From Dehalococcoidia bacterium (GTDB taxonomy: Bacteria; Chloroflexota; Dehalococcoidia; Plut-88900), in contig OZ240221.1 in NCBI GenBank assembly GCA_965197675.1, positions 2,457,637 to 2,521,636 on the forward strand: a DNA stretch of 64,000 nucleotides, in the 5' to 3' direction. The position numbers and the translations under genes were made by a program. Below are positions 2,361 through 54,337 of this stretch, piece by piece. Below the pieces are notes generated by a model that was not told where the DNA came from, did no database searches, and worked only from the letters and a program-made list of their open reading frames with translations. The stretch's first letter is position 1, and every line of letters begins with the position of its first letter.

Positions 2361-2379
2361 AATCCCACCCTCTCCGCCA
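2361..2379 (+). repeat. 19-bp exact direct copy of the 3' end of tRNA-Ser (AATCCCACCCTCTCCGCCA). Att-site-like remnant.
   Basis: Identical to 8573..8591, the T-arm 3' half plus acceptor 3' strand plus CCA of the tRNA-Ser at 8502..8591. Confidence 0.7.
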
Positions 2380-2564
2380 GCGATGAATTCTTCGTCGTGA
2401 AGAGGCAACGGGGACAAATCGAATTGGATCGCTTATGGAGCACCATTATCGTTTGGAAAAGCGCTGATCCGTTTTGAGGATCGAGAAATCACCCACGCGA
2501 CCCTCGAATCACGGATGGCTTACTCGGCTAATGTGCTGCCATCTGACCTGTATGTAGGTCTTCA

Positions 2565-3452
2565 CTACCCATCTTGGTTTGTCAGAAACTCGTCTCGCCA
2601 CTTTGCGTAAGCGTCTTGGTCGAGAACATCGGCAATCAACTTGGATAGGTCTTCAGTAAAGGCCAACTTCTCCGTATTTTCCCTCTGTCTTTGGCTGTGG
2701 AGGACTTCATAAACTGCCCTAACGGCAGCTCCAAAGGTGGCGTGGCCCTTCTGCTTGATCGCAACACCAAGCGATACTAGATATTCGGTATCTTCAAGCT
2801 CGGGTGAAGCGGTTCCCAAGATTATGGGCAGAGAAGTTGCTGATCGCAGTGCTTCTAACTCTCGTCGAGATTCAACATCCACCAGGAAGATGGCGTCTAC
2901 CCCTGCTGTGGAATAAGCCCTTACTCGCCCTACAGTTGGATCGAGTCCTTCCGCTCCAAGCGCATCTGTCCTTCCGACGATTACCAACGAAGGATCGGTC
3001 CGTGCGCTCACCGCCGCTCTCAGTTTGCCGACCATTTCCGGGATTGAAATGAACTTCTTGACCTGGGGCGCTCCAAAACGTGCTGGGAGATCCGTGTCCT
3101 CTATAGTCAGCGCCGACACACCCGAGGCTTCCAAATCTCTCACAGTGCGCATTACGTTGAGGGCGTTACCATAACCGTGGTCTGCGTCCACCATCAGGCT
3201 TAATCGGCTGACTCGAGTTATTCGCTTTACCAGGTCTGCTAGCTCTGTGATCGTGATCAAGGTGATATCGGGAGCTCCCAAAATCACCGCCGAAGCAATC
3301 GAGCCTCCCAACATTCCAATCTCATAGCCCAGAAGATCGGCAATACGAGATGACGTAGGATCAAAAACCGACGCCGGCTGAATACACTCAGGCTGTGCCA
3401 GGCATTGACGAAACCGTTTTCTTGCATCAGTGGTGGACATCTTTGATGACAT
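2565..3452 (-). CDS. PEP mutase/isocitrate lyase superfamily protein (methylisocitrate lyase / carboxyvinyl-carboxyphosphonate phosphorylmutase-like), divergent.
   Basis: MVDADHGYGNALNV, ALTIEDT and GRTDA motifs are typical of the ICL/PEPM fold. The K-R-C-G-H signature is replaced by ARFGAP. Confidence 0.65.
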   Translation of the reverse strand: MSSKMSTTDARKRFRQCLAQPECIQPASVFDPTSSRIADLLGYEIGMLGGSIASAVILGAPDITLITITELADLVKRITRVSRLSLMVDADHGYGNALNVMRTVRDLEASGVSALTIEDTDLPARFGAPQVKKFISIPEMVGKLRAAVSARTDPSLVIVGRTDALGAEGLDPTVGRVRAYSTAGVDAIFLVDVESRRELEALRSATSLPIILGTASPELEDTEYLVSLGVAIKQKGHATFGAAVRAVYEVLHSQRQRENTEKLAFTEDLSKLIADVLDQDAYAKWRDEFLTNQDG

Positions 3453-3490
3453 TTGCTGGACTACTGTTGTTTCCTGGTGGGTGAGCTCAC

Positions 3491-5200
3491 TTAACGACTG
3501 TCACCGGACGAGAACCGCTCCTTGGGTGTTAGCTGAGTATGGGTAACTGCCTCGGGATGCTCGTAGGGAGTAAAAGCCTGTGTGGTTGAGACGGCGTGAG
3601 GGTCGCTTATCACGTTTATTACCGCCGGCTTACCCGATGCGAAGGCGCGCTCCAGGGCGGGGCGTATCTGGTCCGGCTTGTCTACGTACTCGCCATGGGT
3701 CCCCAGCGCTTCACCCAGCTTGTCGTAGCGCTGCTCCGGCCCTATATATACCCATGGTTTGCGGGGTTGTCCCTTCGGTGTTGCAGCCCATCCTCCATTG
3801 ACGTTGACCACGGTAACCACAGGCAACCCGTGCCTAACCGCAGTGTCCAGGTTGATGGCGTTGATGCCGAAGGATCCATCGCCGTGCAGCACCAGGGTCT
3901 TCTTATTGGGTTTGGCCGCTTGTGCACCTATGCCGAAGGGCAGCCCCACCCCCATACACCCGGACCCACCAGAGTTGAGCCTGTGCCCAGGCTCGTAGGT
4001 GGGTATGGCCTGTCTCCCGAAGTTGAGAGTCTCATGGCCGTCCACAACCAGAATGGCATCTTTGGGCAGGAAGTCCCTCACCTCCTTCATCAGCCTCAGG
4101 GGATGTATGGGCACCTGGTCCGAGTTGAGAAGCGGCTCCGACTTCTCGGCATTGGCAGCATCCTTGGCCGCCAGCTTCTGTATCCAGGGTGAGCCCTTCT
4201 TGTTGGAGAACTTCTGCTCCTTGGCCTCCTGGGTCAGCTGTTGGAGCACCATCTTGGCATCCCCCACTATCCCCACATCCACAGGCCTGTTGTGGCCTAT
4301 CTCCTCCCTATCCGTGTTCACCTGTATGAACTTCATCTCCGGGGAGAAGCGAGGCGCCTGCATGTACTGCCACACCCAGTTGTTGCGGGTCCCTATAGAA
4401 ATAGCTACGTCCGCCTCTCTGAAGGCCAGAGACCGGGCAGCCAGGAAGGAGAGGTCGTGGTCTTCGGGAATGACACCTCTGCTCTGAGGTGTGGTGTAGA
4501 AGGGTATGCCAGTGGTCTCAACAAACTCCCGAAGCTCCTTCCACGCCTTGGACCAGAACACCCCTGTGCCGGTCAGCACCACAGGGCGCTCCGCATTCGC
4601 CAGCATCTCTACAGCCCTCTTCACCAGGTCCGGCTCCCCCATGGGCCTGGCATCGGTGCGGGAGTTGCTGGGGTAGTAGACCTCGTCCTCTTCCACCTCC
4701 TGATACAGGATGTCCCCGGGAAGGTCCAGATATACAGGGCCCGGCCGGTTGCCCCAGCACTTGCGGAAGGCCACGCTAACCAACTCCGCCATCCTCCTCG
4801 CAGAGTTGGCCTGACCCACCCACTTGGTGATGGGCTTCATGAGACCCACCTGGTCAACCTCTTGAAAGTCCTCCCAGTGGGTGAGCTGTGCGTTGCTGGA
4901 GCCTCCCAAGGCTATCACCGGACATGCATCTGTCATCGCTGTGACGATGCCCGTTACCAGGTTAGTGGTGCCCGGGCCTGAGCAGGCAGCGCATACGCCC
5001 GCCTCACCCGTTACCCTGCTCCACCCGTGGGCCATCATGGCCGCACCCTGCTCGTGGCGGGCATCGATTAGCCGCATACCCAGCTGTTGACACTCGTGGT
5101 AGAAGTCCTCCATGGGCCCGCCAGACAGAAAGAACATGGTGGACACACCCTCGTTCTTCAGCGCCTTCGCCAGGACCATATTTCCCGTTACCTTTGCCAT
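3491..5200 (-). CDS. Thiamine-pyrophosphate-dependent enzyme, acetolactate-synthase-large-subunit family.
   Basis: N-terminal TPP-pyrimidine domain (GVSTMFFLSGGP...HEQGAAMMAHGW). C-terminal GDGSFG...N TPP-binding motif. 569 aa. Confidence 0.8.
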   Translation of the reverse strand: MAKVTGNMVLAKALKNEGVSTMFFLSGGPMEDFYHECQQLGMRLIDARHEQGAAMMAHGWSRVTGEAGVCAACSGPGTTNLVTGIVTAMTDACPVIALGGSSNAQLTHWEDFQEVDQVGLMKPITKWVGQANSARRMAELVSVAFRKCWGNRPGPVYLDLPGDILYQEVEEDEVYYPSNSRTDARPMGEPDLVKRAVEMLANAERPVVLTGTGVFWSKAWKELREFVETTGIPFYTTPQSRGVIPEDHDLSFLAARSLAFREADVAISIGTRNNWVWQYMQAPRFSPEMKFIQVNTDREEIGHNRPVDVGIVGDAKMVLQQLTQEAKEQKFSNKKGSPWIQKLAAKDAANAEKSEPLLNSDQVPIHPLRLMKEVRDFLPKDAILVVDGHETLNFGRQAIPTYEPGHRLNSGGSGCMGVGLPFGIGAQAAKPNKKTLVLHGDGSFGINAINLDTAVRHGLPVVTVVNVNGGWAATPKGQPRKPWVYIGPEQRYDKLGEALGTHGEYVDKPDQIRPALERAFASGKPAVINVISDPHAVSTTQAFTPYEHPEAVTHTQLTPKERFSSGDSR

Positions 5201-5252
5201 GTTACCTCCCTATGTTCACACGCCGCTAAAAGTCTGGAAAATGTTTGCTGAT

Positions 5253-6143
5253 CTAGCGCGCACTCCTGGGCGTCCAGCTATCGACTACAAGCCTTTCTGG
5301 AAGAAGTTGCGGGACCGATCCCGTTGTTGCATATTCGTAGAGAGTTGCGACATAGATGCCTCTCAAAGCTGCCGTAATCAAAATGAGTGCTCCCAGAGCA
5401 GTCACCCCCAATGCTACCGCTATCACCACTCCCGCCGGCTGAGGGATGATGACCCCAACTACAACAACCACCACAACTATGGGAATCGCCAGGATAATCA
5501 CCATAATATCGAATCCGAAATTGCTTACAAGCTGCTCTCCCCACGTCTTCCGTAAGAGGGATGCAGACCGCTTGATAGCCTGAATGGGCCCTATTCCCTC
5601 GGCTACCAGAACAGGGATCACCAGATAAGTGATGACAGACCAGGCAACCTGAGCTACCAGGCCCACGATGAGAAGGACAATCATGGCTGCACCTCCGTGC
5701 TGGGAAAGCCCTCTCCTCGCAAATTTATTTATGGCGTAAAAGATCAACGACACTATAGCCGAGATAGCAGCCCAGCCGATGATTCCCATCAGGTTTCGGT
5801 TCGCGACTTGAAATCCGTCCCTCAGGGTTGGGTCTCCACCCTGTAACCGAATACGAGCAGCGCCGATCAAGGCCGCATTGAAGTAGATGATAATGAAATA
5901 GCTTATGAAGTAGCATATCCCCAATATCACGTAATCCGCAGGGATCATTTCGAACCCCTGATCCGCAGAGTCGGCAACCCTATCTACCAGCCCAGTTGCG
6001 AAGATCAGAGTGAAAGTGAAAATCAGGCTGATAGTCGATAGAAGTGGGAAGAGCATTAGCTCTTTGTCATGTTGCAGTATCCTCCAGCAGACTTTGAACA
6101 GTTCCCAGCTTCTTCCGATTGTAGCGAACATTTGACACCTCAC
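5253..6143 (-). CDS. Hypothetical polytopic membrane protein.
   Basis: Multiple hydrophobic helices and a VVVVVVGVII run. No catalytic motif. Confidence 0.45.
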   Translation of the reverse strand: MRCQMFATIGRSWELFKVCWRILQHDKELMLFPLLSTISLIFTFTLIFATGLVDRVADSADQGFEMIPADYVILGICYFISYFIIIYFNAALIGAARIRLQGGDPTLRDGFQVANRNLMGIIGWAAISAIVSLIFYAINKFARRGLSQHGGAAMIVLLIVGLVAQVAWSVITYLVIPVLVAEGIGPIQAIKRSASLLRKTWGEQLVSNFGFDIMVIILAIPIVVVVVVVGVIIPQPAGVVIAVALGVTALGALILITAALRGIYVATLYEYATTGSVPQLLPERLVVDSWTPRSAR

Positions 6144-6842
6144 TAGGGATCTCTCATTCTACAGGATTTCCTCTATTTTATCAGGAGGTAGAAACTGCAC
6201 ACTCAGGCTCCCACTGGTGGATGGGCATTGGCTGTGTCGGATTGTGGGAATTGATCTGACTCAACGCCACCTGCAAACCGGCTATGAAATTATACACGCG
6301 CCTCATCGGGGCCATACCGCCGTGGAATTGTCCGACCAGACAGCACCGAAAACGTGAAGGCTGCTAATAGAGAAGGTTCATACATTCTATAGTAGGTTTT
6401 ATGTTAAGTTATGCATGCCAGTCAAGTTGACAAGCTGTAATGGGAATCTTATGCTTCCCCTGTTCTCATAGGGTTGGTATTATCGAGGTCCACGGAAGGA
6501 GTCAAGGCGGCATGGTGAGCTTTTCGCCGCACATCAGATTCTCTCCATCGTCAACATTTCGTTCATCCTCTTCACGGTGGTTCTCGGTACTAGCGCCCTT
6601 CAGCACCAACCCAGTAGTCCATCGACCTGTGAAGACCAGGGAGTAACCGTATCTGATCATCCAGTGGCGCCCTTCAGTCAAAAATGAGAGGATTCGAAGC
6701 TCAGACCGTCATAAGTGCCGTACAAGTCGTTTTCAGTAAGGCCGAGGCGCTCCTTAAACGGACTATCTAGAGAATCTTCAGATGCATTTCTGACCCCAGG
6801 GATATATAGATTTAGGCAACAGTATCGGTGTACAGCATGTAG

Positions 6843-45091: not shown

Positions 45092-46086
45092 TCTGCACCT
45101 CGACTCTCTCGCAGATCTTTAAGCTGCCGGAACATGGCCAACTCATCCTCTCTGAGAGAGGAGGGCAGCGAGGCCCTGACCTTGACGTGCAGGTCGCCCT
45201 TCCTGGAGGCGCCCAACACAGGCATACCCTTGCCTGCCAGCCTAAAAACGCGTCCGTTCTGCGTGTAAGGTGGAATTTTCAGAGCTACTTTGCTCGTGAG
45301 TGTCGACACGTCTACTTCACCACCTAAGACGGCGGTCAATAGAGGCACTGACACCTCCACGCGAAGGTCATCTTCCTTCCTATCGAAGCGAGAATGGGGC
45401 CTGACAGTGACTACCAGATATATGGTCTTAACACCGACTTCAGACACATCCTTTCCTCGACCAGGACTCACGCGGACTCTGGACCCCGTCTTGACACCGG
45501 CGGGAACCTTCACTTCTAGACGACGATTCTTCTGAATGACTCCCGTTCCACTACATCGAGGGCATGAGCCTCCCCTACCGCCACAGGAGAGACACCTCTC
45601 CTGGTCCACGAACTCAATGGTCCTGGTAGTGCCGTGATAGGCCTCCTCAAGAGTCACCTCAATGGGGTGTTCAATCTCAGATGGAGGCCGCATGGTGAAG
45701 CTGTCCTGAAACGGACCTCGCCCTCGACCCCTCATAACGCTGCCAAGAATGTCGTCCAAGGGACTGGAGCCAAACTCCAGATCCAAATCTACGTCTGGCC
45801 CTGAGCCGCTAGTCTCATAGCGCCAGACGAAGGGGTCCCGCTTACCTCCAGACGGCCCGGAAAAACGGAAGCCACGACCATTCTGGTCGTACTCCTCACG
45901 TTGTTCGGGATCGGAGAGAACTTGATAGGCCTCATTGATCTCCTTGAACTTATCCTCTGTTTTCTTGTCGCCCGGATTCACATCAGGGTGATATTTACGG
46001 GCCAAGCGCCTGTAGGCCTGATGGATCTCCTTCTCAGACGAACTCTTGGGTACTCCAAGTATGTTGTAATAGTTCTTGGCGGCCAT
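45088..46086 (-). CDS. DnaJ-family co-chaperone with J domain and a single CxxCxGxG zinc-finger-like segment.
   Basis: J-domain NYYNILGV...YRRLARKYHPDVN with HPD. CLSCGGRGGSCPRCSGTG. Overlaps hspR by 4 bp, consistent with an operon. Confidence 0.8.
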   Translation of the reverse strand: MAAKNYYNILGVPKSSSEKEIHQAYRRLARKYHPDVNPGDKKTEDKFKEINEAYQVLSDPEQREEYDQNGRGFRFSGPSGGKRDPFVWRYETSGSGPDVDLDLEFGSSPLDDILGSVMRGRGRGPFQDSFTMRPPSEIEHPIEVTLEEAYHGTTRTIEFVDQERCLSCGGRGGSCPRCSGTGVIQKNRRLEVKVPAGVKTGSRVRVSPGRGKDVSEVGVKTIYLVVTVRPHSRFDRKEDDLRVEVSVPLLTAVLGGEVDVSTLTSKVALKIPPYTQNGRVFRLAGKGMPVLGASRKGDLHVKVRASLPSSLREDELAMFRQLKDLRESRGAE

Positions 46087-46333
46087 TTTATCTAATGTTC
46101 AAAACCTTAAACATCTTATCTGATGTCAGCCTTCATGTCAATAGGTTTATCAATGTATATGATAGCATATCCATAATATTACTTCATAATATACTTGACA
46201 ATTTCATTATCATATTTTATACTATTTTTGAATAGCAAAGTTGAGGTAACCAGGCATCGAAATGAACTTTATACGGCGAAACAACCCTGTACTGAAAGTG
46301 AAAGGAGGGCAGCATGGCAAGCACAGCTCTATT

Positions 46334-46348
46334 GAGACTCTCATGAGG
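46334..46348. promoter_or_regulatory. Overlapping palindromes (TGAGACTCTCA / CTCATGAG) in the divergent dnaJ-hspR-clpC / hsp20 control region. Candidate operator.
   Basis: Perfect short palindromes within the 414-bp divergent intergenic region. Does not match the canonical HAIR CTTGAGT-N7-ACTCAAG. Confidence 0.25.
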
Positions 46349-46500
46349 ATCTATGGGGATGTTTACAAGTTTGCAGGGACTTCCTTGAGACCCGCATAAG
46401 CCCAGAAAAATTCCGTCGACGTATGCGCAAAAGTCAGGAACGACACGTCAGCAGGTCACAATACAACCCTTAAAGAGAAAAGGGAAGGAGAAAACTGAAA

Positions 46501-46977
46501 ATGAGAGCTTTAGTTAGCTGGGACCCCATCTTCGGAACGCGTGGCATGAGGCGATTAATCGACAGGGTGTTTGACGACACCTTTTTCCGCCCCTATCGAG
46601 TAACCCCTTGGGCGTTCAGAGAGGATTATCTACCCTTGGACGTATATCAGAACGAGGGGGAACTGGTAGTGAAGGCCTCTTTGCCCGGAGTAAAGCCGGA
46701 GGACGTGGAGGTAACCCTGGACCACAGCACCCTCGTCATAAAGGGAGAGATGAAGGACTCCAGGGAAGGCGACCATGAAGGTTACATGCTTAGAGAGCGA
46801 CGTCTAGGAGTCTTCCATCGCAGGATTGCTCTATCCAAAAATCTGAAGACAGACGAGATAGACGCAACCTTTGAGAACGGTATCCTTACCATCTCCATTC
46901 CCAGGGCCAAGGAGGCCAAGCCAAAGGTGATAGAGGTCAAGCCCGCTCATCACATCGAGGATGAAAAGGCAGAGTAA
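46501..46977 (+). CDS. Hsp20/alpha-crystallin family small heat-shock protein.
   Basis: Alpha-crystallin domain (LPLDVYQNEGELVVKASLPGVKPEDVEVTL...GILTISIP). Confidence 0.85.
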   Translation: MRALVSWDPIFGTRGMRRLIDRVFDDTFFRPYRVTPWAFREDYLPLDVYQNEGELVVKASLPGVKPEDVEVTLDHSTLVIKGEMKDSREGDHEGYMLRERRLGVFHRRIALSKNLKTDEIDATFENGILTISIPRAKEAKPKVIEVKPAHHIEDEKAE

Positions 46978-47082: not shown

Positions 47083-47290
47083 CCTCCAACACCCCTCCCC
47101 TTCGACTACACTCAGGGTAAACTTTAAGCTCAGGGTGAGCGGATGTCTCTTTTGACCCGCTCATGGTGAGCCTAGAGTTTATCCTGAGTTCCCCGAAGGG
47201 AACCATTTGAGCGAGCGGGGGTACAACCAACCCCGGAGCGGACGAGTGAGCCCAAGGCCTTTGCCTTTCTGGGACAGGCTCCACGTGGGA
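47083..47290. repeat. Composite dispersed-repeat cluster (family C element 47129..47188, family D module, family B 47251..47281).
   Basis: Blocks homologous to 8230..8335, 30121..30234 (inverted), 25014..25044 and 26453..26483. Confidence 0.55.
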
Positions 47291-49397: not shown

Positions 49398-50309
49398 CTA
49401 GTGATGATAAGCACTCTCCTTATATAGTGCTGTCATTTCTTCCTTTTGTGGTTTCCTAAACACAAACAAATGCTCATGCATGATTAAGAAAAAGTTCTTC
49501 TCTCTCGACAGCCGAGTCCAAAGATTCTCCGTTTGTGTATGCCACTGATACTTAATCACGTCCTCTTTGAGGATGAATCCCGCTTCTAAGAACACTTCCA
49601 TTACCCTGAATGCCAGTGGCACATAGTGCCTATTTCTCCTGGTGTCACCTACCAGAATAGCGCAATAGTGGTCAGGTTTAAGGACTCGGAAGAACTCATC
49701 GGCGACAAGCCGCATTTGCGAAACGAACTTAGTAACGTCGCCAACCAGGGACAGGTCCTCTTTCAGTTCCGCCTTTGGATCTGAGTAAGAAATGATATTC
49801 GCATACGGAGGGTGAGTAGCGATTAGGTCAATGGTGGCATCTTTGATTAGATTCAGATTCCGCGTATCACCTTTATAGATTTCAACTCTTGACGTAGGTA
49901 ATGGCACCTTTAGGAGACCGAGTGAGAAGTTTAAGCGGTCCATCGTCAGCATCAGAGCATTCATATTGACATCAATACCGATAGCGTTGCGTCCCGTCAG
50001 CTTGCACTCCACTAGAGTGGTGCTACCACCACACATTGAATCGAGTACTAAATCACCTGGAGGGCTATAGCGTAGGATTAGGTTACGTGCTATCTGGGGT
50101 GCCCAGTTGCCTCGGTAACTAGAGCGGTGAGTGGCCCAGCTACCTCGTTGGGGAAATGACCACAGAGTAGTAGTCTCGGTCTTGAAATCTGTCGGTTGCA
50201 GATCCTTGGGACACTGCTGGCCTCGGAGACGGATCTTGGCTTTCCCAACTTCGACGGTTTTTTGTCGGGCCAGAAAACGCTGGTAATCCGCCTGAGACAG
50301 AAGCTGCAT
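49398..50309 (-). CDS. DNA methyltransferase of the N6_N4 (PF01555-like) family, with the usual C-terminal motifs X-I moved to the front and motif IV reading HPPY.
   Basis: WSFPQRG...APQIARNLILRYSPPGDLVLDSMCGGSTT (motifs X-I) precedes IDLIATHPPYANI (IV) and FFRVLKPDHYCAILVGD. Low GC compared with flanking genes. Confidence 0.7.
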   Translation of the reverse strand: MQLLSQADYQRFLARQKTVEVGKAKIRLRGQQCPKDLQPTDFKTETTTLWSFPQRGSWATHRSSYRGNWAPQIARNLILRYSPPGDLVLDSMCGGSTTLVECKLTGRNAIGIDVNMNALMLTMDRLNFSLGLLKVPLPTSRVEIYKGDTRNLNLIKDATIDLIATHPPYANIISYSDPKAELKEDLSLVGDVTKFVSQMRLVADEFFRVLKPDHYCAILVGDTRRNRHYVPLAFRVMEVFLEAGFILKEDVIKYQWHTQTENLWTRLSREKNFFLIMHEHLFVFRKPQKEEMTALYKESAYHH

Positions 50310-50310
50310 A

Positions 50311-50397
50311 GATCAGATCGGGGATCGATCCGATCCTACAGATCATTAGCAAAAGATCAAGATCATTTGGCTCCATTTTTTCTGTATGTAGCTGATC
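50311..50397. promoter_or_regulatory. GATC-dense spacer with 9 GATC sites in 87 bp, including the palindrome GGATCGATCC. Lies between the nuclease and methyltransferase genes, immediately 5' of the methyltransferase ATG.
   Basis: GATC at 50311, 50316, 50323, 50327, 50332, 50341, 50355, 50361 and 50394. About 0.3 would be expected by chance. Confidence 0.55.
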
Positions 50398-50427
50398 TGG
50401 GAAAGGAGACAATTCCTCGAAATTATC

Positions 50428-51354
50428 TCACCTGCCTTGATAGGCTTGCCCCTCATCGCTGAGCCTGTACAGCCCCAACCTCCCAGCTACTCCGCCCTTT
50501 CTAATGAAGAAGTCATCACCATCTTTCCCAACTGTGTGGGCATTTAATCGTCCTCTTATGCTATTGCATAATGTATCCCACTTGTACGGCAGGGCTAGCT
50601 CTTTGGCCCTGGCTTCAACCCAGGTCGAAATGTCTCTCAGGTGCACATATCCCTCGGCATCTCCCGCCAAGTTTTTCATAGCTTGAATTATTAAGCCCCT
50701 TTGAGTCGGGGCCGGACCCTCAAGATAATCTTCTCTTCTTTTGAGTTCCTTGAGTAGCCGCTGAGTTTTCTGGTCTCTTAGCGCTTTTCGCCCTTCATTC
50801 CTCACCCGTTTATAGATTCTTTCATAGTCCTCTAAGTACGCCTCATCCGGTCTGAAAATAGTCTCCTGTTTTCTAAAGCGATCGTAGACCGAAAAGATTT
50901 GCTCTGTCAGCGGATCCAATCTAGAAGCGTGAATGGCCAAATTCAACTCTGCGTTTAGCTCAAAACCACTTTTTGTCAAATTCGATGACCCCACCACAAA
51001 ACAGCACTGATCCTCAGGACGCTCAATAATATAGAGCTTAGGATGGAATAGTGGTACATCATCTTGAGACGGGTCAGAAAAGGCATAAAATTTCAAATTC
51101 GGGTGACCCGTTCTGGCCCGAATGAGCCACTCCATGGCTTTAGGCTCGGATATTCTAAAATCTAACCCAAAAACGATTTCAAAGCTGTCACCAAGCGCAA
51201 GGATATTATTTAATTGGTCCTCGATACTATTGAGACCAGACAACCTGATGAACGCCGTGGCAAAACGAGCAGACGATGCCCCATCAAGTTGCCGCACTAG
51301 GAAGTTAGTGAGCGTTTCCTCATGATTGTCGATGACAGTAATTGATGGCCTCAT
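50428..51354 (-). CDS. PLD-family (single HKD motif) nuclease with a C-terminal winged-helix-like domain. The ORF-track start at 51393 would be GTG; the first ATG is at 51354.
   Basis: HPKLYIIE...VVGSSNLT...NAELNLAI resembles Nuc/BfiI-type PLD nucleases. C-terminus ...FFIRKGGVAGRLGLYRLSDEG resembles Mrr-N/HARE-type winged helix. Confidence 0.6.
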   Translation of the reverse strand: MRPSITVIDNHEETLTNFLVRQLDGASSARFATAFIRLSGLNSIEDQLNNILALGDSFEIVFGLDFRISEPKAMEWLIRARTGHPNLKFYAFSDPSQDDVPLFHPKLYIIERPEDQCCFVVGSSNLTKSGFELNAELNLAIHASRLDPLTEQIFSVYDRFRKQETIFRPDEAYLEDYERIYKRVRNEGRKALRDQKTQRLLKELKRREDYLEGPAPTQRGLIIQAMKNLAGDAEGYVHLRDISTWVEARAKELALPYKWDTLCNSIRGRLNAHTVGKDGDDFFIRKGGVAGRLGLYRLSDEGQAYQGR

Positions 51355-51424
51355 GAAATTTCTAGTGTTCGCAAATAGGGAATAACTAATCACTGTCCAA
51401 TAGCCAGATTTGGACTAGAGTAAG

Positions 51425-53137
51425 CTATCCGTCATCCATCAACTCTTCCAGCACCTCTCGTACGAGCTCTAAGGGAACGTCGTTACGGATGACGGGCTTG
51501 CCGATCTCATCCAGCAGCACCCATCGGATGGTCTTGCCCCTGACCTTCTTGTCCAACTGCATCGCATCGATAAGGGCGTTCACATCTATCTTAGGCGAAG
51601 AAGTAGGCAGCCCGTACCTTTCCAGTAGTGATCTCTGCCTCTCAACCGACCTCTCAGGCAGACCAGCTACCCGATGGCTGATCGACGCGGCTCCCATCAT
51701 CCCCACTGACACGGCTTCGCCATGGAGGAACCGCCCATAGCCGGCAACCGCCTCGATGCTGTGTCCTATGGTGTGTCCGTAGTTCAAAATAGTCCTCAGC
51801 CCAGACTCCTTCTCATCCTGGCTCACCACCTGTCCCTTCAAAGCTGCGCTGCGCCGGACTACCTCGGTGGTGCTCTCAGGTTCCAATGCCATAATCGGCT
51901 CTGAGCCTCCTTCCAGTATATCCAACAACTCAGGGTCCATGATCATACCGTGCTTTATCACCTCGGCCCACCCGGACGTTAGCTCCCGAGGAGGCAGAGT
52001 AGATAAGACTTGCACGTCGGCTATAACCATCCGAGGTTGGTAGAACGCACCGATGAGATTCTTGCCCCTAGCGTGATTTATGGCTACCTTCCCCCCGATG
52101 GACGAATCCATCATCGCTACCAGGCTGGTAGGTATCTGGACTAACGGAAGTCCTCGAAGGTAAGTGGCCGCGGCATATCCGCCCAGGTCTCCCACCACTC
52201 CACCACCCAGAGCAACTACGGGGCTACCCCTCTCCACCCTGTGCTCCACCAGCAAATCGTATATAGCCGAAAGGGCCTCCGGAGACTTGCTTCTCTCTCC
52301 AGCTGGCACTTGCTTTTCCAAAACCTGGAATCCCGCGCTCTTCAACGACTCTGCAGCCCGAAGGCCATAGGCAGAATAGACCACCTCATCAGCTATTATC
52401 ACCGCGGTGCCTGATAAGCCCAAGTTCCTGGTCCGCTGGCCCAACTCGTCTAGCCCTCCCCAACCTACGAACACGGGATATTGGGCTGTGGGAGTAGTCA
52501 CCACGAACGCTGCTCCCATCTCCTGGCAGTAAGGGGCTTCCGACTCTTTTCTTACGAGTCCGGCCGGTGGAAACATATCTCCAGTGTCTTTATCGAGGCG
52601 GCGCCAAGCATACTCCACCCCCCTCACAACCTCCTCCACCACCTCCTCCATCTTTAGGTCATCGGTGTGGACGGTCCAGTCGGCCATAGCATAAAAGGGT
52701 TGGCGATACTCCTTGAGAGACTCGATCCTCTTTAGCGGGTCTGGACCCGCAAGCAGGGGGCGAACGGCTTCAGGGTTAGAGTCATCGAGACGGAGGCGTT
52801 TCAGGACGATGTTGGGTTTGGCCTCCAGGCATATCACCACACCGCTGGACATCATCAGCCTGCGGTTCTCTGGATCCAGTACCATTCCACCCCCCGTCGA
52901 GACCACCACCCCCTGTTGACGGCATGCCTCCACTAATACTTTACGCTCCCGCTCTCGAAAGCCCTCTTCCCTCTCCTGGCTGAATATCTGGGGTATGGTC
53001 ATATTTGCCCGTGCCTGGACTTCTTCGTCTGTATCAACGAACTCGCGATGAAGCCGACGAGCCAGGTTACGTCCAACCTCCGACTTGCCCGTTCCAGAAA
53101 AACCCACCAGGAAGATACTCTCGGACATGTCAATCAC
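51425..53137 (-). CDS. aroKB: Bifunctional shikimate kinase / 3-dehydroquinate synthase fusion.
   Basis: N-terminal P-loop FLVGFSGTGKS (AroK). C-terminal DHQS motifs (GGGVVGDLGGYAAATYLRG; DSSIGGKVAIN). Confidence 0.85.
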   Translation of the reverse strand: MIDMSESIFLVGFSGTGKSEVGRNLARRLHREFVDTDEEVQARANMTIPQIFSQEREEGFRERERKVLVEACRQQGVVVSTGGGMVLDPENRRLMMSSGVVICLEAKPNIVLKRLRLDDSNPEAVRPLLAGPDPLKRIESLKEYRQPFYAMADWTVHTDDLKMEEVVEEVVRGVEYAWRRLDKDTGDMFPPAGLVRKESEAPYCQEMGAAFVVTTPTAQYPVFVGWGGLDELGQRTRNLGLSGTAVIIADEVVYSAYGLRAAESLKSAGFQVLEKQVPAGERSKSPEALSAIYDLLVEHRVERGSPVVALGGGVVGDLGGYAAATYLRGLPLVQIPTSLVAMMDSSIGGKVAINHARGKNLIGAFYQPRMVIADVQVLSTLPPRELTSGWAEVIKHGMIMDPELLDILEGGSEPIMALEPESTTEVVRRSAALKGQVVSQDEKESGLRTILNYGHTIGHSIEAVAGYGRFLHGEAVSVGMMGAASISHRVAGLPERSVERQRSLLERYGLPTSSPKIDVNALIDAMQLDKKVRGKTIRWVLLDEIGKPVIRNDVPLELVREVLEELMDDG

Positions 53138-53167
53138 TGATCTAAGAATCGGTTTGCCTGGCAGAGC

Positions 53168-54337
53168 CTAACAGTTTGCCTTGGTAATTGCTTCGAGGTA
53201 GTCTTCGTAATTGCGCTTGGTCTCCTCGACGTGGTCGCCACCGAACTTCTCGAGAAGGGCATCTGCCAGCACTATAGCCATCATCGCCTCGCCAACTATG
53301 CCCGCCGGCGGCACCTGGCAAACGTCGCTGCGCTCATAATGGGCTTGAATCCTCTCCCCAGTATCCAAGTCCACCGATGGCAGGGGTTTGGCCAATGTCG
53401 ATATGGGCTTGACCGCCACCCGCACTATGATGTCTTCACCGTTACTCATGCCGCCCTCTATCCCGCCGGCCCGGTTGGTGGATCTCTTCCATCTACGATT
53501 CTGAGACGGATCGAAGGGCTCGATCACGTCATGAACTTGGGAGCCTCGAAGGCCGATAGACTCGAAGCCCAGACCGATCTCAACCCCCTTCATGGCATTG
53601 ATGCTGAGCATGGCCTGAGCTATCCGGCCATCCAGCTTTCTGTCCCAGTGGACGTAGCTGCCCAACCCCACTGGAACACCGATGGCTACCACCTCGAAGA
53701 CGCCTCCCACCGTATCTCCCGCCTCTTTAGCCTCATCTATGGCTGCCATCATCAGCTTTTCAGCTTCAGGGTCCGCACACCTAACGGGAGATTCCTCCAC
53801 CAACCCCCAGTCAATGGGACGGCAGAGCTCCGCCGAATGCTCTCCGATGGCGACTGTGCTGCTGTGAATCTCTATGCCGAACTCCTCCAGGAACCTTCGG
53901 CACACGGCGCCCACCCCACTCCGGGCCGCCGTCTCACGAGCGCTTGCCCGCTCCAGAACGTTGCGAACATCTCTATGACCGTACTTCAAGATGCCGGCTA
54001 AATCGGCGTGACCAGGCCGAAGCCTGGTCACCCGTTTAGTATCGCCCTCTATTGGGTCCACGCTCATAGCCTCACGCCAGTTCTCCCAGTCCTTGTTCTC
54101 GATCCACAGGGCGATGGGACTGCCGAGAGTCAGGCCGTGTCGCACCCCTGACTTAATGAGGGCTCTATCTTTCTCTATCTGCATACGGCCGCCTCGGCCG
54201 TGACCCTTTTGACGTCGTGCCAGGTCTTGAACAATATAGTCTTCCGAAATGGATAACCCGGCGGGCATCCCCTCGATGATTACCGACAGTCCCTGCCCAT
54301 GAGACTCTCCTGCTGTGAGAAAACGGATATGTCCCAT
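53168..54337 (-). CDS. aroC: Chorismate synthase.
   Basis: FLTAGESHGQGL N-terminus and conserved RPGHAD motif. Confidence 0.9.
   Translation of the reverse strand: MGHIRFLTAGESHGQGLSVIIEGMPAGLSISEDYIVQDLARRQKGHGRGGRMQIEKDRALIKSGVRHGLTLGSPIALWIENKDWENWREAMSVDPIEGDTKRVTRLRPGHADLAGILKYGHRDVRNVLERASARETAARSGVGAVCRRFLEEFGIEIHSSTVAIGEHSAELCRPIDWGLVEESPVRCADPEAEKLMMAAIDEAKEAGDTVGGVFEVVAIGVPVGLGSYVHWDRKLDGRIAQAMLSINAMKGVEIGLGFESIGLRGSQVHDVIEPFDPSQNRRWKRSTNRAGGIEGGMSNGEDIIVRVAVKPISTLAKPLPSVDLDTGERIQAHYERSDVCQVPPAGIVGEAMMAIVLADALLEKFGGDHVEETKRNYEDYLEAITKANC

Follow-up and report, generated by a model that had tools for sequence, protein, structure and literature searches.

A phospholipase D–winged-helix nuclease, a GATC-rich leader and a THPPY-family methyltransferase as a candidate modification-dependent defence cassette in a Dehalococcoidia bacterium

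The DNA analysed was a 64,000-nucleotide stretch from a Dehalococcoidia bacterium (assembly GCA_965197675.1, contig OZ240221.1, positions 2,457,637 to 2,521,636 of the forward strand; hereafter the window), and the element in question is an islet of two co-oriented minus-strand genes, encoding a phospholipase D (PLD)-type nuclease with a C-terminal winged helix (wH) and an amino-methyltransferase (MTase), separated by a spacer densely packed with GATC sites (Table 1). The islet lies between a ThiS-like gene and aroKB-aroC-aroE, as described in an earlier note made from the sequence alone: the open reading frames (ORFs) were exactly so arranged, and the flanking genes were confirmed via Pfam on two near-identical metagenome contigs (L020, L021), with aroKB (SKI + DHQ synthase) on one side and ThiS on the other. 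These contigs are 97.4% (L020) and 99.7% (L021) identical to the window and carry the same islet, so that the arrangement is present in three strains. GC content was 47.7% in the MTase gene, 46.2% in the nuclease gene and 40.7% in the spacer, against a window mean of 53.7% and 54–58% in the flanks, a real dip, although a smaller one than the 40–45% versus about 58% originally estimated by eye. No flanking direct repeats marking an insertion were found at the islet.

Table 1. Positions of the islet genes and their sub-features within the window.
Feature	Position	Strand	Details
MTase gene, THPPY-family amino-methyltransferase, circularly permuted PF01555 enzyme	49398..50309	-	303 aa, ATG start
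Motif IV, THPPY	49803..49817	-	aa 165-169; aligned to TSPPY of 2ZIG
Motif I (S-adenosylmethionine binding), DSMCGGSTT	50016..50042	-	aa 90-98; aligned to 2ZIG motif I
Inverted repeat GATCGGATCG / CGATCTGATC	50307..50340	-	ends at MTase start codon; 3' half of leader
Intergenic spacer, MTase leader	50310..50427	-	118 bp
GATC array	50311..50397		9 sites: 50311, 50316, 50323, 50327, 50332, 50341, 50355, 50361, 50394
PLD-wH nuclease ORF	50428..51393	-	321 aa from GTG (ORF list)
C-terminal winged helix, new subtype	50431..50721	-	aa ~225-321; recognition helix NSIRGRLN
Helical linker	50722..50868	-	aa ~176-224; AlphaFold2 helices 184-200, 202-206, 208-221
Single-HKD PLD-type nuclease domain	50869..51354	-	aa ~14-175
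Catalytic block H117-P-K119...G135-S-S-N138	50980..51045	-	E149 just downstream; 39-sequence alignment

The nuclease ORF is listed from a GTG codon, and its true start is probably Met14, at 51354, which would give a protein of 308 aa, because homologues begin at this internal methionine (P0001, 92% identical, and most of the family have MRPSIT as their first residues). The single HKD motif previously read from the sequence was found in place: the block HPKLYIIE...GSSNLT...NAEL is present, PF13091 matched at 1.5e-8 (Pfam), and H117, K119, S136, N138 and E149 were invariant or nearly so among 39 homologues. The nearest relatives of the PLD domain are restriction nucleases, and its nearest fold is that of the Type IV enzyme SauUSI. 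Single-HKD PLD domains dimerise into one active site in Nuc, BfiI and SauUSI. DISARM also contains a PLD protein, DrmC, encoded with the DrmA/DrmB helicase-DUF genes and DrmMI/MII; this identity was rejected for the nuclease, which scored 7.9e-7 in PADLOC and 15 bits against a cut-off of 133 in NCBIfam, and has ThiS and aro genes as neighbours.

The C-terminal ~95 aa of the nuclease formed a winged helix in AlphaFold2 models (pLDDT 91 and 89.5), as had been proposed, and the accompanying claim of a likeness to Mrr-N/DpnI domains was not recovered: PF17726 and Mrr_N gave no Pfam match on the domain, and comparison with DpnI_C-type winged helices by hhalign found no similarity (probability 0.8%). 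Its recognition helix reads NS[IV]RGRLN across the 39-sequence alignment, and the DpnI counterpart is EKIRQQLQ, whose residues E228, K229, R231, Q232 and Q235 contact both m6A methyl groups (PMC3424567). Pfam analysis of 23 C-terminal-domain sequences returned only marginal linker-histone and HTH_27 matches and no Pfam family for the domain, and among 1.84 billion representative proteins a profile search placed it in just 84 clusters, nearly all of the same ~310-aa architecture. The subtype was also seen in a few other layouts: P0296 is a PF01555 MTase that starts with it (borderline, E of 6.6e-4), P0240 has it behind an HSDR_N domain, and P0264 is an HTH_17 + PLD + wH protein.

With 103 clusters, the nuclease family is small. 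Shorter relatives have the PLD module in common with it (P0032 and P0079, 56% identity over 209 aa) and carry DpnI_C at the C-terminus (PF17726, 1e-13), the winged helix with which DpnI reads Gm6ATC, or in one case an EVE domain, and the PF17726-type paralogues retain AKIRQQLQ in the wH helix. Because paralogues carry DpnI_C or EVE in place of the winged helix found here, the PLD module is a scaffold for swappable DNA-reader domains, as expected of modification-dependent enzymes.

Related nuclease loci were located with a 13-sequence alignment, and MTase neighbours were counted over 13 independent nuclease lineages, with nuclease ORFs intact in those lineages that have no intact MTase. No MTase was found nearby in seven lineages (L003, L006, L007, L022, L023, L026, L027/28), and three more (L001, L009, L011) retained only an N-terminal remnant, an ORF matching the first ~100 aa and corresponding to the first ~100 codons of the L002-type MTase gene. 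In the lineage of L002/12/13, a co-oriented MTase of the same type (motif I before motif IV; L002:5977–6876) lies downstream of a nuclease homologue 38% identical to that of the window (value for L002), and is interrupted by one in-frame TGA at 6265–6267, which could be a pseudogene mutation, a recoding event or an error. In L024/25, fragments of a canonical-order PF01555 gene lie on the strand opposite to the nuclease. An intact MTase near the nuclease was thus present in the window lineage only (1/13), with 12/13 having none, and the pairing of this nuclease with a THPPY MTase was likewise confined to that lineage; the two families do not generally co-occur, contrary to the expectation that they would be found together elsewhere.

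The MTase matched PF01555 at 1.1e-23 (84.8 bits against a gathering cut-off of 26.7), with the C-terminal part of the profile covering aa 39–119, and matched the PADLOC model MTase_II (PDLC03376) end to end at 5.5e-73 and PDB 2ZIG (TTHA0409) at 2.3e-10. Residues 144–230, from motif IV onward, aligned to 2ZIG chain positions 24–112, and residues 69–125, spanning motifs X–I, to positions 220–276, so that the enzyme is circularly permuted relative to both the profile and 2ZIG, in agreement with the earlier note, which had placed the X–I block before motif IV. The HPPY tetrad and the permuted order are both present, although neither is the peculiarity it was taken for: THPPY occurs in 118 of the 120 closest homologues, motif I comes before motif IV in every one of the 116 that allowed scoring, and the family consensus of motif I is D-x-M-x-G-[GS]-G-T-T. 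A length of 303 aa, which the earlier note took to leave almost no room for a target-recognition domain, is ordinary for small PF01555-type enzymes. More than 7,288 homologues were found, and the ~120 close ones are full length and retain all motifs.

An RNA-methyltransferase identity (Trm11/UPF0020) was rejected, the RNA models scoring far under their cut-offs (TIGR01177, 34 bits against 316). Action on DNA is favoured by the PADLOC MTase_II score together with the repeated linkage of THPPY MTases to nucleases (DpnI, PLD-wH, Mrr_cat, PDDEXK_11). A scan of viral contigs with the MTase returned no relatives, the only literature match for an 'HPPY' motif was a typographical error for R.HpyAXII, and methylome papers on Fusobacterium and on freshwater metagenomes gave no specificity for the THPPY family.

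Two other settings of the family were noted. In Fusobacterium vincentii SB055 (L029, NZ_CP084075.1 655134–665886), a THPPY MTase 49% identical to that of the window closes a four-gene block (2363–5729) made up, in order, of a Dam-family MTase (TIGR00571, 1e-82), a DpnII endonuclease (PF04556, 5e-109), an Mrr_cat nuclease and the THPPY MTase, which may be the second GATC methylase of the DpnII system or the partner of the Mrr_cat gene. DpnII/MboI systems usually carry a second GATC methylase. In L032–L034 (4001–5402), a THPPY MTase (58% identical) overlaps a downstream 150-aa PDDEXK_11 ORF by 11 bp, a layout that resembles an ordinary small restriction-modification (R-M) operon.

The spacer between the two genes, which the earlier note had rightly called GATC-dense, is a conserved element. 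Within 84 bp it has 9 GATC sites, compared with 1 per 241 bp on average in the window, any other 120-bp stretch of the window has at most 4, and the Poisson probability of one such stretch is ~1e-10. The array is identical in L020 and L021, and the last ~67 bp of the spacer are homologous to the spacers between DpnI and MTase genes in L030, L035, L036 and L031, with the shared sequence TAGATCATTTGATCTTGATCTTTT ... GATC[G/C]GATCGC-loop-GCG[G/A]TCT..TC-ATG and with 8, 7, 6 and 4 GATC sites, respectively. MTases with other partners, PDDEXK_11 in L032–34 and Mrr_cat in F. vincentii L029, lack the leader. No Dam, DpnII or DpnI homologues were found elsewhere in the 64-kb window.

Folding of the leader alignment (RNAalifold) gave a consensus hairpin of ~12 bp at -20.8 kcal/mol that also pairs the ATG, and in this model the hairpin could occlude the MTase start codon. 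The fold had no covariation support (covariation term +1.12, with pairs invariant or changed by wobble), its single-sequence z was -2.27, Rfam gave no match for the leader, and neither a sigma-70-type promoter nor an intrinsic terminator was found in the spacer. Because GATC repeats are self-complementary by nature, a genuine RNA structure is treated as possible, and an RNA element is not claimed.

The main new evidence on the organisation of the islet came from four loci at which orthologues of the MTase follow DpnI genes at a spacing of about 77–92 bp (P0106 in L030, 71% identical to the window MTase; P0123 in L035, 69%; P0137 in L036, 64%; P0146 in L031, 56%). The DpnI genes of L030, L035 and L036 are intact (261 aa, PF06044 + PF17726) and co-oriented with the MTase, which begins 78–92 bp downstream, and the cassette of L036, on a circular contig of 3.4 Mb, has other genomic surroundings. 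The DpnI of L030 aligned over its full length to Streptococcus pneumoniae DpnI (PDB 4ESJ, 9.5e-50) and retains the recognition helix KVRQQLQILRD; the DpnI gene of L031 (L031:3139–3923) is full length with one frameshift near 3560–3600, and an intact 111-aa ORF for the wH alone survives in the frame downstream. The ratio of nonsynonymous to synonymous substitution rates (dN/dS) between L030 and L035 was 0.38 for DpnI and 0.13 for the MTase, and between L030 and L036 it was 0.15 for the MTase, with dS above 1. Both partners are under purifying selection where DpnI and MTase co-occur. Since an orthologous MTase and a homologous GATC leader follow DpnI elsewhere, the PLD-wH gene occupies the slot of DpnI in the window cassette, and the order of wH-bearing nuclease, GATC array and THPPY methylase is, from these comparisons, an old and functional unit. 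No description of a conserved DpnI/PLD-wH + MTase + GATC-array cassette was found in the literature searched.

Between the window and L020, dS was 0.217 for the nuclease, 0.05–0.07 for aroKB and aroC (aro genes, 51425–54337) and 0.019 for the MTase. By this contrast the islet is mosaic between strains, and the higher value for the nuclease suggests that its allele was exchanged by recombination. In L020 the nuclease ORF is intact, with a dN/dS of 0.21 against the window, and the MTase (L020:7046–7957, equivalent to window 49398–50309) is interrupted by a nonsense change in codon 20, where GAA has become TAA (E20*). L020, L031 and L021 are long-read assemblies at ~4x, 10x and 7x coverage, respectively, and such assemblies contain indel errors; the chorismate synthase gene aroC, intact in the window (53168–54337), is split in L021 (L021:1677–2845) into two ORFs of 90 and 299 aa.

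From these results, the islet is probably a two-gene defence cassette made up of a modification-dependent (Type IV-like) PLD-wH nuclease and a compatible, GATC-linked methylase. What the sequence comparisons establish is the domain anatomy, the family distribution, the replacement in the cassette slot, the conservation of the leader and the purifying selection. The earlier note's suggestion of modification sensing has become the best-supported reading, on the grounds of the SauUSI fold, the DpnI_C and EVE paralogues, the general lack of an intact MTase and the DpnI slot, and its remark that the pair does not match a textbook Type II R-M system also held, given a single-HKD PLD domain joined to a winged helix and homologues mostly without an intact MTase. 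The mechanism is inferred, as are its dependence on modification, its connection with GATC, the chemical nature of the mark that the methylase places and what the leader does. By analogy with Nuc, BfiI and SauUSI, a dimer of single-HKD domains would form one metal-independent active site, and the C-terminal winged helix would bring the nuclease to a DNA mark, with cutting nearby. The nuclease would attack foreign DNA that carries a modified base, the likeliest being methylated adenine within or close to GATC, the methylase would place a mark compatible with it, and the GATC array would tie expression of the methylase to GATC methylation or occupancy. Methylase and leader form a stable unit, and in the window a PLD-wH gene has replaced DpnI in the slot upstream of it. 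Because selection keeps both partners, the methylase cannot make the nuclease's substrate genome-wide, and because both are conserved together, its mark must suit the nuclease.

Several observations weigh against this interpretation. The winged helix of the nuclease lacks the m6A/GATC-reading helix of DpnI, with its five contacting residues, and since the helices differ and hhalign finds no similarity, Gm6ATC specificity is not transferable from DpnI by homology; for the window nuclease, only the equivalence of cassette slots and the GATC array suggest it. The best fold matches of the domain are generic, and some are readers of unmethylated CpG (PCL/MTF2). The link between array and nuclease is drawn from five loci, and the pseudogene calls in L020 and L031 come from low-coverage, error-bearing long-read assemblies. 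The published PLD-wH proteins Aba4572I and CbaI resisted purification (PMC11037411). Finally, an intact, co-oriented MTase right beside the nuclease has the look of a classical R-M pair.

Such a pair, of the BfiI/NgoAVII (Type IIS-like) kind, would have the winged helix read an unmethylated sequence, perhaps with GATC, the PLD dimer cut, the MTase protect the host and the array serve in MTase autoregulation. The co-oriented genes 118 bp apart, kept so in three strains, fit it, as do the absence of DpnI's methyl-reading motif from the winged helix, the same-type co-oriented MTase downstream in L002/12/13 and the operon-style overlap of the THPPY MTase with a small PD-(D/E)XK ORF in L032–34. We nevertheless judge it unlikely, as in 12 of 13 lineages the nuclease ORF is intact and yet no intact MTase lies close to it, MTase orthologues partner DpnI, which cuts only methylated sites, nuclease paralogues carry known modified-base readers, and the C-terminal domain is a winged helix and not the B3-like domain of BfiI. 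In L020 a nonsense codon in the MTase stands beside a nuclease under purifying selection, and a nuclease requiring this MTase for host protection would not show that pattern. A further interpretation is an 'inverted logic' of restriction, to which we give a similarly low weight: the nuclease would cut DNA with methylation foreign to the host (Dam-type Gm6ATC or something like it), and a 'shield' methylase would pre-mark host GATC sites, for example with N4-methylcytosine, so that invading Dam-type methylases could not make the host chromosome a target, or so that the nuclease would ignore doubly marked sites. The array of 6–9 GATC sites would then sense methylation or occupancy and set methylase expression, and DpnI and PLD-wH would be interchangeable 'swords' for one shield.

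A genetic conflict, or 'dam-replacing' arrangement, in which the MTase would be a DpnA-like GATC adenine methylase, the nuclease would cut Gm6ATC, and the two would be together only transiently or with the MTase silenced, for instance by a hairpin over its start codon, appears improbable. Its appeal lies in the F. vincentii family member, which ends a Dam + DpnII cassette where a second GATC methylase is usual, in the position of the GATC array in the MTase's own leader, and in the disrupted MTases of L020, L002/12/13 and L024/25; frameshifted MTases beside DpnI-like genes and possible self-restriction by Aba4572I have also been reported (PMC11037411). A silenced or conflicting gene would not, however, be conserved as this one is, with an MTase dN/dS of 0.13–0.15 at dS above 1 beside intact DpnI, in three genomes and at least two genomic locations, and with ~120 close homologues full length with all motifs. 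The remaining explanation is chance adjacency, in a small horizontally acquired islet, of an MTase that is an orphan or solitary enzyme and a PLD-family protein that has nothing to do with it and need not be a DNA nuclease. Defence genes do cluster without working together, the pairing was found in the window lineage only, and the two genes have different histories (dS of 0.217 and 0.019 between strains); since, against this, the slot before the MTase repeatedly holds a wH-bearing nuclease (DpnI, at four loci) at the same spacing and with the same leader, and the PLD domain is nearest to restriction nucleases, coincidence is very hard to credit. The modification-dependent cassette is retained as the preferred interpretation.

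Modification-dependent nucleases (DpnI, Type IV) are taught as stand-alone genes, and a methylase beside such a nuclease is seen in the literature as a conflict that is resolved by inactivation of the methylase. A methylase family that purifying selection has kept intact directly behind DpnI in several genomes, always with a GATC leader, departs from the stand-alone view. If the pair works together, it would represent a new operating logic for restriction, possibly with a novel domain for reading DNA marks and a regulatory element that senses methylation, and if the two genes do not cooperate, the locus would still be a clear natural swap of a nuclease module in a defence cassette. The wH subtype would add to the small set of candidate DNA-modification readers and could serve as a reagent. 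The PLD-wH architecture itself has been known since 2024, and what is new here is the wH subtype on the PLD-wH scaffold and the conserved DpnI/PLD-wH + methylase + GATC-array cassette.

Two further features were seen in the window outside the islet. By comparison with L021, a second low-GC stretch (45800–46600, 39–46%) is the intergenic DNA that separates an HSP20 gene from a divergently oriented DnaJ-MerR-ClpB cluster, so that heat-shock promoters are a more probable explanation for it than a further islet. An indel of ~44 bp that distinguishes the window from L021 (window ~47093–47101, L021 8920–8964) lies upstream of a threonine-synthase-like (PALP) gene.

Among known systems, the closest are the 27 PLD-wH fusions proposed as Gm6ATC-dependent Type IV enzymes (Helbrecht et al. 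2024, Front Microbiol 15:1286822; PMC11037411), so the earlier note's description of an uncharacterised variant applies to the wH, a separate sequence family, and not to the class. In that work, the source was an Anaerolineaceae bacterium for Aba4572I and a Chloroflexi bacterium for CbaI, CbaI toxicity was Dam-dependent and Aba4572I behaved anomalously, 87% of wH-fusion genes had no MTase within three genes, MTases adjoining DpnI-like genes were frameshifted in cases cited there, and Aba4572I adjoined an amino-MTase predicted to target CGATCG, with possible self-restriction as a consequence (PMC11037411). Like the window nuclease, Aba4572I and CbaI are single chains with an N-terminal PLD domain and a C-terminal winged helix, and the fusions, like the window nuclease family, come from Chloroflexota/Anaerolineae-type hosts and are mostly stand-alone, with Aba4572I, like the window nuclease itself, having an amino-MTase neighbour (in the window intact and 118 bp downstream). 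The comparison with Aba4572I and CbaI is by description only, and it is the PF17726 paralogues of the window nuclease (P0069–P0087) that appear to be of the published type.

DpnI (Type IIM; PDB 4ESJ/4KYW) shares the cassette position and the order of catalytic domain and C-terminal winged helix, and differs in having a PD-(D/E)XK fold with a zinc site in place of PLD and a different wH subtype; Gm6ATC specificity is only putative for the window nuclease. SauUSI (Type IV; PDB 7CLG) shares the nuclease domain only (query aa 16–216 to chain 29–213), and is a protein of 953 aa with an SF2 helicase/ATPase motor and another target-recognition domain, neither of which is present in the 308–321 aa of the window protein. 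BfiI and NgoAVII (Type IIS; PDB 2C1L, 4RCT) begin, like the window nuclease, with a PLD domain that has a single HKD motif; it dimerises, as that of the window nuclease would. They also share with it a DNA-binding domain at the C-terminus and neighbouring MTases, but their C-terminus is a B3-like beta-barrel and not a winged helix, they cut unmethylated sites, and they depend on their own MTases. The beta-class PF01555 MTases (DpnA, M.MboIIA, CcrM, TTHA0409) resemble the window MTase in size, in the xPPY catalytic loop and in clear homology, whereas the window enzyme has motifs X–I before IV–VIII, a gamma-like order, and THPPY in place of D/S/N-PPY.

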